46,457 nucleotides of DNA from a virus (lineage: Duplodnaviria > Heunggongvirae > Uroviricota > Caudoviricetes), in the IMG/VR virus record IMGVR_UViG_2563366799_000009. One strand, 5' to 3'. Position 1 is the first letter of the stretch. The number at the start of each line of letters is the position of its first letter. This document shows, piece by piece, positions 2,307 through 4,709 of this stretch. A model generated the notes under the pieces. The model worked only from the letters and a program-made list of their open reading frames with translations. It had not been told where the DNA came from and did no database searches. The position numbers and the translations under genes are program-made.

Positions 2307-3232
2307 AAATATCCCTTGTCGTTCCGGTATTTAATGAAGAAGACGCCATAACCATTTTCTATAGGGAAATCCGTCATTTTCAGCCCTTCCAGGGGGAAGA
2401 GGTTGAAATTGTCTTTGTAGATGACGGTAGCACTGACTTCACTGCTGTTCTGATGAAAGAGATGGCGCAGGAAGATAGTCTGGTCAAAAACATATTCTTT
2501 ACTCGCAACTTTGGTAAAGAAGCTGCGTTATTTGCTGGGCTAGCAGAGGCCAGCGGCGAGGTGGTAATACCTATAGACGTGGACCTTCAGGACCCGCTGG
2601 AAGTCATTCCGCGCATGATTGAGAAATGGCGAGAAGGGGCTGATGTTGTTCTGGCAAAGCGCATGGATAGGTCTTGCGATAGCTACCTCAAGAGAAAAAG
2701 CGCTGAATGGTTCTACCATCTTCACAACTTAATCAGTAATCCTCAAATTGAAGAGAACGTAGGCGATTTTCGTCTTATGTCCCGAGAAGTTGTCGAACAC
2801 ATCAAGCTGCTGCCTGAGAGAAACCTTTTTATGAAGGGGATACTATCCTGGGTAGGTGGTAAGACAGATGTGGTTGAATACGTAAGAGCCGAAAGAGCCG
2901 CAGGAAAAAGTAAGTTTAATGGCTGGAAGCTTTGGAATCTGGCGCTTGAAGGGATAACGAGCTTCTCCACTTTCCCGCTGAGAATGTGGACGTATATCGG
3001 ACTCTTCGTTGCCGGATGCTCTTTTTTTTATGGAGCATACATGCTTATCGACACCCTATGCTTTGGAAACCCTGTTAAGGGATACACCTCGATAATGGTA
3101 TCTATGCTGTTCCTTGGCGGTGTTCAGCTGATAGGCATTGGAGTGCTCGGAGAATACATTGGGCGCATTTACATCGAAACAAAGAACAGACCAAGATACA
3201 TTACGAAAAGGGATAATGTTGAACATGAGTGA
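2303..3232 (+). CDS. gtrB: GtrB, bactoprenol glucosyltransferase (GT2 family)
   Basis: 309 aa [13 protein letters not shown]…DVDLQDP…; canonical GtrB N-terminus and C-terminal membrane anchor. Confidence 0.9.
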
Positions 3233-4709
3233 TTCAGCGTTAAAAAACGATAAATTCCAGCGAATTTTTAGAATTGTTTTGCCATTGTCCCTTTTATACA
3301 TATCTTGGATTGTTTTTACTGGCAGACTTTACATTGATGACTTAGGCCGTTCTCTTTACGGTTATACATCGTGGGGGCAGGACGGCAGGCCAGCCTCTGA
3401 TCTATTAATGTCAGCCTTGAGTTTTGGCACGCCAATCCTAGATATTACACCCCTTCCCCAGATTTTATCTGTCATTGCCTTAAGTGCAGTTCTGTCACTT
3501 TGGGGGGTGAAGTATCTGCCCAAAAAAGGCACAATTTCTTCTGCTGCATGTGTTTTATATTTTATTCTATCACCATTTTTCCTTGAGAATATCTCATATC
3601 GTTATGACTCACTACCTATGTCTTTGAGTCTTGTTGCACTATTATTGCCATATGCATTGAAGAAAAAACCTTGGTCTCCTTTTCTGCATTTCATTTCTGT
3701 TATCGCTTCCCTGTCTTTTTATCAGGCATCAATATCGCTATTCATATTACTTATGATTATTGATGTAATTCATCTTTATTTTTCTAAAAAAGATGATTTA
3801 AGATACCTGGAAATAATCAAGTCAATTGCAATTAACACTCTTGCCTTTGCTGCTGGATTTGTTTTTTATAAGGTATTAATTGCTAGCTCTTTTGCGTCGG
3901 GCTCTTATTCTGATGAGCACTCAAAAATTATAAACGTTGACCACACCTTTTTTGATGTACTGTATAATAATACAGTTGTCATATTCACGTGGCTTTTAAA
4001 CCCGCTTTATAAGTGCTCTCCTTTTCTCTTTAAGGGGTGCGCATTGATCTTGATAGTTAGCATCATAAAGATATCAATGACATCCAAAGATGTGAAATCC
4101 AGAGTTATTAACTTATTTTTACTTTCCGCCTTGATTACTGCGGGCTTTTTCTCTTGCTTTGCACACATTGCACTTCTTAAAACCCCTGTGCTAGCGCCTA
4201 GAGTATTAATATCTTTCACAGGATTCTTCCTGCTTTTTGCATACCTAGTAGTCCAAGCCTTTGAAAGTAAAAAAATTCAGCTGATACTTTTGGCCCCTGT
4301 TGTTTTTTTTAGTTTCATACTTTCATTTTCTTATGCAAACGCATCAAGCTCCCAAAAGGAGCTAGATAAATTAATTTCCACCTCAATTTATAACGACATT
4401 TCTCATCAAGATTTGAGTTTTAAAAATGTTTTCATTCATGGCGTTATGCCAACATCGAAGCAGAGGGCATTGATAGTCGAGAGACTTCCGATAATGAATT
4501 CTCTGATACCTATTTATTTAAATAACAATTGGTCTTGGGGGGCTATGATGCTTAAGCATTACCTTCTCGACTACAATGTGGACGCAACAATTACAGATCC
4601 AAAAAAGGAAATCTGCTCCTTAACACCATTCTCCAGGTCTAATGATTATTCACTATACAGCAAAGGTGATACCTTAATAGTATCATTTGATAAGACTGGA
4701 TGCCGCTGA
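3225..4709 (+). CDS. gtrC: GtrC-type serotype-specific O-antigen glucosyltransferase (polytopic membrane protein)
   Basis: About 494 aa, many hydrophobic segments, AT-rich codon usage, third gene of the gtr operon; ATG overlaps the gtrB stop. Confidence 0.7.

Follow-up and report, generated by a model that had tools for sequence, protein, structure and literature searches.

The closest described relatives of the gene considered here belong to three-gene systems that modify bacterial surface polysaccharides. In the podovirus P22, GtrC (family I) links glucose 1->6 to the galactose of the O-unit (factor O:1), and GtrII of the Shigella flexneri phage SfII is the founder of Pfam family PF14264. 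Phages SfV, SfI and SfIV share a layout of Mu-like sheath, tube and baseplate genes, tail fibre, tail-fibre assembly gene, terminator, gtr(type)-gtrB-gtrA, attP and int, and E. coli K-12 carries yfdG-yfdH-yfdI in its CPS-53 element. The GmlABC and GmlABD systems of Klebsiella pneumoniae resemble these by description, having the same logic of a polyprenyl-phosphate-sugar synthase, a flippase and a GT-C transferase. We present here an analysis of the gtrC gene of the virus record IMGVR_UViG_2563366799_000009 (IMG/VR; Caudoviricetes), a DNA of 46,457 nucleotides (nt) which in its full length is called the window below. The gene closes a gtrA-gtrB-gtrC set carried by an SfV-like prophage whose tail is of the Mu type. 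With a probability of roughly 70% it encodes a working, acceptor-specific third component of a periplasmic glycosylation system, the lysogenic-conversion module of an SfV-like temperate phage.

3225..4709, + strand: gtrC, encoding a 494-amino acid (aa) predicted GT-C-fold membrane glycosyltransferase of the Pfam family of P22 GtrC and GtrII

The gtrC open reading frame (ORF) runs from an ATG start to a TGA stop through 494 codons without a break. When its 1485 bases were shuffled 2000 times the longest stop-free run was 85 ± 18 codons (maximum 180), and the chance of 494 stop-free codons arising from its composition is ca. 1e-13; the remaining five frames are stop-free over no more than 89 codons. 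The start is slightly ambiguous, an alternative in-frame ATG at 3216 giving a protein of 497 aa. Databases hold GtrC entries of both lengths, and the RefSeq start of the E. coli homologue is the equivalent of window position 3225. The G+C content of the gene is 36.6% (35% at third codon positions) as against 45% for gtrA and gtrB, 53–54% for the adjacent baseplate genes and 51% for the whole window. Hydropathy and the predicted structure give 11–12 long hydrophobic helices followed by a C-terminal mixed α/β domain of ca. 100 residues. An earlier description of this DNA from its letters alone (the sequence-only reading) had called the third gtr gene AT-rich and its product a polytopic membrane protein of ~494 aa, and both statements are borne out. 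The possibility that the gene is disrupted was also checked: gtrC is intact in the window, as is every other copy inspected. No meaningful repeats were found in or beside it.

The sole Pfam match of GtrC is PF14264 (Glucosyl transferase GtrII, Glucos_trans_II) with 97.4 bits against a cutoff of 30, residues 28–336 aligning with profile positions 2–316 of 317. Its best PHROG is 4829, “GtrC-like O-antigen conversion” (E 1.7e-89; positions 7–485 of 485), while NCBIfam contained no model matching GtrC or GtrA. Among the typed enzymes retrieved P22 GtrC and S. flexneri GtrII are members of PF14264, and GtrI, GtrIV, GtrV and K-12 YfdI are not. An alignment of 41 GtrC homologues (A1) formed the basis of the profile searches and of the conservation data; compared with GtrII using hhalign, its profile gave a probability of 92.5% (E 5e-7). 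The functional residues of GtrII were not carried over to GtrC, the N-terminal register of the hhalign alignment being unreliable.

An AlphaFold2 model of GtrC built from an alignment (pLDDT 93.8, pTM 0.92) had PglB and STT3 as its top Foldseek matches, and structure comparison places its predicted multi-helix transmembrane core in the GT-C fold. Sequence identity to the solved GT-C enzymes (Pmt4, ALG12, AftA/B, PglB/STT3, ArnT) is just 8–12%. PDB sequences searched with the homologue profile gave no match, and the PDB searches returned no solved GtrC-type enzyme. Residues D39, P76, D128, M132, Y166, Q167 and R326 are invariant in the 41 homologues, while D38, R42, G46, W50, G54 and R55 are at least 90% conserved. 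In the model the motif Y-I-D-D-L-G-R-S, which contains D38/D39, occupies a short helix (37–45) immediately past the first transmembrane helix (TM1, residues 9–32); in GT-C enzymes the catalytic Asp is placed directly after TM1 (PMC11127046). The positive-inside pattern would make the D38/D39 loop periplasmic, and the topology would be N-in, C-out if the weakly hydrophobic helix 243–264 does not span the membrane.

The assignment to PF14264 and the GT-C fold also bear on the suggestion that GtrC is an O-antigen acyltransferase, like the family II “GtrC” of Salmonella prophage BTP1. Kintz et al. are said to have reported in 2015 that some genes in the gtrC position are acetyltransferases; for the present protein both family and fold rule against this activity and effectively refute it, and we rejected the idea as scarcely credible.

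The closest typed enzyme is P22 GtrC, which is 33% identical over the full length (E 2e-68). BLASTP revealed no significant alignment with GtrI, GtrII, GtrIV, GtrV or YfdI, in a typed comparison that excluded GtrX, GtrIc and, individually, Salmonella GtrC families II–X. SfII GtrII shares Pfam family, phage type and gene order with the window gene and still gave a pairwise E value of only 0.86; GtrV, GtrI and GtrIV, which are outside PF14264, have no sequence similarity to GtrC (E > 0.5), and YfdI, which has no Pfam match, is unrelated (E 1.6). The resemblance to P22 extends to PF14264, PHROG 4829, the position of gtrC at the end of gtrA-gtrB-gtrC and beside tail genes, and an AT-rich gtrC (32% G+C in P22 versus 37% in the window). 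The two differ in that P22 is a podovirus and the window a myovirus prophage with a Mu-type tail. In Salmonella, identity inside a GtrC family exceeds 96%, and two families which glucosylate the same galactose share less than 18% (PMC3688519). With 33% to its closest typed relative GtrC falls far below the >96% of the Salmonella families; its acceptor and linkage can therefore not be inferred from sequence, which agrees with what the sequence-only reading had said of its specificity.

Searches of larger collections gave a similar picture. None of 50,697 phage records contained a relative of GtrC above ~33% (tblastn), and megablast of window positions 1800–4800 against the same records gave no match, so the gtr module is present in none of these deposited phage genomes. 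Among 72,556 plasmids tblastn found no relative above 32%, and none of its matches was on a plasmid of Klebsiella or E. coli; when GtrC and GtrB served as protein queries against plasmids, the reported E. coli gmlABD plasmid was not recovered. The species-representative genomes held no close relative, a profile scan giving only relatives of ≤45% identity. RefSeq lists the exact 494-aa sequence as “MULTISPECIES [Enterobacteriaceae]”, from at least 115 contigs, and at least 228 blocks of the sequence collection contain it; GtrC is thus an untyped protein which is already in public databases under a generic name.

The position of the gtr operon on the prophage, beside the tail-fibre genes, and the gene order match those of SfV, SfI, SfII and SfIV. 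Two features define its surroundings:

4739..5134, − strand: tail-fibre assembly gene, the conserved right flank of the gtrC cassette (PF02413, E 1e-30)
45264–46457: integrase, at the prophage end opposite the gtr operon

The tail-fibre assembly gene adjoins the gtr cassette in SfV, SfI, SfII, SfIV and loci L016 and L018 as well. Farther downstream of gtrC are found the tail fibre, baseplate genes like those for Mu gp48/47/46/45, and the tape measure, tube and sheath genes. The limits of the window coincide exactly with two stop codons, that of an S24/UmuD-like gene at its start and that of the integrase at its end, and it therefore represents an excised prophage region. Unlike SfV, SfI and SfIV, it carries additional genes ahead of gtrA at this prophage end: the S24/UmuD-like gene, dinI and an ORF to which no function is assigned.

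Comparison with E. coli strains MRSN346647 and 30EVA2 revealed boundaries on both sides of gtrC:

3207..3225, no strand: left recombination junction of the gtrC cassette, where similarity to MRSN346647 collapses
4709..4746, no strand: right recombination junction of the gtrC cassette, similarity to MRSN346647 returning at 4746

MRSN346647 is 96.6% identical to window 2238–3207 at the nucleotide level, and the match resumes at 4746, inside the tail-fibre assembly gene, at 86.8%. The corresponding proteins are 62.5% (GtrA), 99.3% (GtrB) and 38% (GtrC) identical. Strain 30EVA2 presents the reverse mosaic, with 59% for GtrA, 84% overall for GtrB and 98.4% for GtrC; its nucleotide match spans window 2567 through 4895, and the 5' half of its gtrB is 53–70% identical. 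The mosaic junctions at the borders of gtrC indicate that the gene is a cassette which recombines via its conserved gtrB and tail-fibre assembly flanks, and the same flank-mediated exchange has been reported for Salmonella gtrC (PMC3688519). The sequence-only reading had taken the gene for the third, variable member of a gtr cluster and had stated that this member is exchanged horizontally. The first claim is upheld by PF14264, PHROG 4829, the GT-C fold and the SfV-like gene order, and the second by the junctions at 3207 and 4746 and the reverse mosaic in 30EVA2. Among prophages otherwise 99.9% identical the match begins at window position 1 in some and at 2226 in others. In loci L002, L005 and L008 the segment ca. 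4952–5766, comprising the 5' part of the tail-fibre assembly gene and the distal tail-fibre gene, has been replaced; this is a swap of a host-range cassette adjoining the gtr cassette.

The gene is under purifying selection. Against the 82%-identical homologue of L016 the ratio of non-synonymous to synonymous substitution rates (dN/dS) is 0.136 at a dS of 0.83, the lowest values being those of the C-terminal domain (0.04) and the N-terminal catalytic part (0.11). The 30EVA2 allele differs by 14 synonymous and 8 non-synonymous changes (dN/dS 0.17). Homologues at 82%, 49% and 39% identity are all found in gtrA-gtrB-gtrC, those at 82% and 49% in SfV-like prophages at the yfdC/argW site.

The two genes preceding gtrC are as follows:

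1947..2306, + strand: gtrA, encoding a 119-aa small membrane protein, the proposed undecaprenyl-phosphate-glucose flippase (PF04138, E 3e-14)
2303..3232, + strand: gtrB, encoding a 309-aa GT2 polyprenyl-phosphate glycosyltransferase (PF00535, E 1e-31)

GtrB is the predicted undecaprenyl-phosphate-glucose synthase. It matches the solved Synechocystis GtrB (5EKP) over residues 2–301 with an E value of 5e-86, keeps the D92-x-D94...QDP stretch, and is 73–77% identical to GtrB of SfV, SfI, SfII, SfIV and P22 and to K-12 YfdH (75–77% for SfV, SfI and SfIV). GtrA matches phrog_2224, “GtrA-like” (E 3.5e-50), and is 54–59% identical to its counterparts in SfV, SfI, SfII, SfIV and P22 and to K-12 YfdG (only 54% for SfV, SfI and SfIV). 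The description of both genes as near-canonical consequently stands for gtrB and not for gtrA. The exact GtrA sequence is in the databases as “GtrA family protein”, mostly from Klebsiella/Raoultella, entries of which dominate the GtrA and GtrB clusters of the window.

The similarity of GtrB to the enzymes of glucosylating phages points to glucose as the donor sugar. Transfer of another sugar, such as galactose, has to be considered, one host genus of this type of prophage being Klebsiella, which is also the host of both Gml systems and so has an analogous three-component system for galactose side branches (O2afg/O2aeh; PMC11127046, PMC12797948); the predominance of Klebsiella/Raoultella entries in the GtrA and GtrB clusters is in keeping with this. 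We regard it as highly improbable, given the full-length 73–77% identity of GtrB to the GtrB proteins of the glucosylating phages SfV, SfI, SfII, SfIV and P22. Moreover, gmlABC adjoins rfb rather than lying on a prophage of the window type and is carried by between about a quarter and a third of K. pneumoniae genomes (PMC7556023), whereas the gtrA and gtrB alleles of the window are on just tens to hundreds of contigs and are therefore not gmlAB.

Taken together with glucose as the probable donor, the reading we prefer would operate as follows. On the cytoplasmic face GtrB would transfer glucose from UDP-glucose to form undecaprenyl-phosphate-glucose, which GtrA would flip to the periplasmic face. 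GtrC, with D38/D39 in its first periplasmic loop and its C-terminal domain likewise periplasmic, would then add a glucose side branch to a surface polysaccharide which is lipid-linked or nascent, the O-antigen repeat unit being the most probable acceptor. Such glucosylation would change antigenicity and phage adsorption. We infer O-antigen as the acceptor, expression from the prophage and a modified O-antigen in the lysogen.

The three genes are on the same strand and tightly packed, with overlaps of 4 nt (ATGA, joining the gtrA stop and the gtrB start) and 8 nt (gtrB/gtrC). The signals around them are:

4718..4736, no strand: likely gtr operon terminator, a G+C-rich hairpin and T-run between the convergent gtrC and tail-fibre assembly genes
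1845..1946, + strand: non-coding region upstream of gtrA, with a terminator-like hairpin at 1845–1859 followed by ~90 nt that would have to accommodate the gtr promoter and ribosome-binding site

The downstream site consists of TAGGCCGCCATGCGGCCTA then CTTTATTTTG, and rho-independent terminators are annotated at the equivalent position in SfV and SfII. Terminator-like sites are overall no more numerous in the region than in shuffled sequences, so that this call rests on position, not on statistics. The upstream hairpin, GCCCGGTCGCCGGGC then TTTTTT, is strong. As it lies only ~90 nt 5' of the gtrA start, either the gtr promoter is located within a very short interval or read-through is regulated. 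Dam/OxyR phase-variable gtr operons are marked by two GATC pairs upstream (PMC3688519). In these operons, among them that of P22 and most gtr operons of Salmonella, the four sites form closely spaced pairs located within OxyR half-sites ahead of gtrA. P22 has such a four-GATC region, with pairs at 367/380 and 431/444 of L011, and the gtr operon of the window is without one; between 1500 and 1960 just three isolated GATC sites are present (1567, 1635 and 1915). The GATC pattern led us to reject phase variation of this kind, no scan for OxyR motifs having been made.

Prophage copies were allotted to hosts by their chromosomal neighbours:

L003 and L007: Enterobacter (roggenkampii-type)
L004: Klebsiella pneumoniae
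L006: E. coli

In these four the prophage arm is 99.2–99.9% identical at the nucleotide level over ~12 kb, and the insertion sites of the shared arm differ (yejM, mltF, ompW/trpA, pepN, ybhQ). This points to recent spread across genera or to exchange of modules between phages with different integrases. Among complete E. coli genomes 7 of 5426 match gtrC, at 94–97% nucleotide identity from mid-gtrB onward. The three inspected (30EVA2, BY63 and PEC145) all carry a 98.4% identical GtrC variant, WP_034169220.1, in the yfdI position of a decayed CPS-53-type remnant at argW, whereas the window is a full-length prophage. Their O-antigen clusters are:

30EVA2: O174-family wzx/wzy cluster
BY63: O2/O50-family cluster
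PEC145: unnamed cluster with rmlBDAC and gne

In 30EVA2 wzzB, the O-antigen chain-length regulator gene (L102 3262–4239), is an annotated pseudogene with an internal stop, and the O2/O50 cluster of BY63 contains acyltransferase fragments and a degraded ISAs1; O-antigen expression may be altered in both strains.

Several observations weigh against a working O-antigen glucosyltransferase. Identical GtrC proteins occur in Enterobacter, K. pneumoniae and E. coli prophages, and the 98.4% variant is found with three different E. coli O-antigen clusters (n = 3 strains), a spread of alleles which one would not expect of an enzyme bound to a single O-unit structure. Among distant family members in species-representative genomes gtrB is adjacent in just 13 of 59 loci. 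Salmonella GtrC families II and IV cause no detectable change in O-antigen or lipopolysaccharide (LPS) (PMC3688519), and no gtr promoter was identified in the window. With the allele spread over three genera and three O-antigen clusters, “serotype-specific” and “lysogen converted”, as the sequence-only reading had it, are still matters that we infer. The spread itself has three possible readings: many O-units may share the motif that serves as acceptor, a conserved glycan may be the acceptor, or the gene may be silent in many hosts. Silence might follow, for example, from replacement of the O-locus in a lineage already carrying the remnant.

The last of these would make gtrC an intact passenger, inactive in many or most of its current hosts for want of a suitable acceptor or of expression, so that lysogeny often would not bring seroconversion. 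The distribution of the allele over genera and O-types agrees with this, as do the silent Salmonella families II and IV, and some Salmonella gtr operons altered LPS only under constitutive expression (PMC3688519). The terminator-like hairpin ~90 nt upstream of gtrA and the failure to find a promoter are of the same tendency. A passenger is nonetheless rather unlikely, because a dN/dS of 0.14 over a dS of 0.83 reflects long-term selection on the protein, all copies of gtrC examined are intact, and the genes of the operon are coupled and overlap, with a terminator of their own.

An active enzyme whose acceptor is not a serotype-specific O-unit, but enterobacterial common antigen (ECA), the LPS core or a residue that many O-units share, is an unlikely alternative which would explain how one allele could work in many hosts. 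The 100% identical GtrC of Enterobacter, Klebsiella and E. coli prophages, the intact 98.4% variant beside three unrelated E. coli O-antigen clusters and purifying selection on the gene would all fit, and three-component systems do modify glycans other than O-antigen (PMC11127046). The typed PF14264 relatives P22 GtrC and GtrII, by comparison, act on O-units. The E. coli copies are in a CPS-53-type remnant which has decayed and whose tail-fibre gene is truncated; later replacement of the O-locus would explain the missing association, and the E. coli O-loci examined number only three. We know of no PF14264 member that acts on ECA or core, which also counts against this alternative. Its boldest form, in which GtrC is a broad-host, “universal” surface-conversion module glucosylating a glycan common to the Enterobacteriaceae (ECA, LPS core or a ubiquitous O-unit residue), we consider decidedly unlikely. 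An acceptor-specific GtrC which most probably acts on O-antigen is the reading retained here.

Other features of the window lie near the prophage end and in the right flank. The S24/UmuD-like gene (1–390, − strand) and a dinI homologue (473–712, + strand) are divergent, and between them at 414–455 are two adjacent LexA-box-like motifs, CTGGATAAAAACACAG and CTGTATATCCAACCAG, each of the form CTG-N10-CAG. These motifs suggest that the prophage end carries SOS-regulated moron genes. A small ORF at ~922–1058 lies between the two copies of a 25-nt direct repeat (812–836 and 1086–1110; 92% identical, 274 nt apart); its counterpart in L008, a nearly identical locus, is called as a 39-aa gene of the YnaM family (PF23676). 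Between dinI and gtrA the 128-aa ORF at 1120–1506 (− strand) matches phrog_19751, of unknown function (E 6e-53), and has no Pfam match; it is called in some near-identical prophages and absent from other gene calls. Lastly, the sole structured-RNA match in or around the gtrC cassette is a sub-threshold one to Rfam IS009 inside the neighbouring tail-fibre assembly gene (4767–4961, − strand), which covers the full model length and scores 41 bits (E 4e-7) against a gathering score of 117.

The result is one of annotation: GtrC is a well-supported, uncharacterised member of a well-known enzyme class. Gtr modules alter the immunodominant surface antigen and the receptor of many phages. An untyped gtrC which one prophage carries between Klebsiella, Enterobacter and E. 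coli could therefore mislead O-typing from genomes (Kaptive, ECTyper), and likewise confound the design of O-antigen vaccines and antibodies and the prediction of host range in phage therapy. The finding would carry greater weight only if the distribution across genera reflects an unusually broad or a non-O-antigen acceptor.

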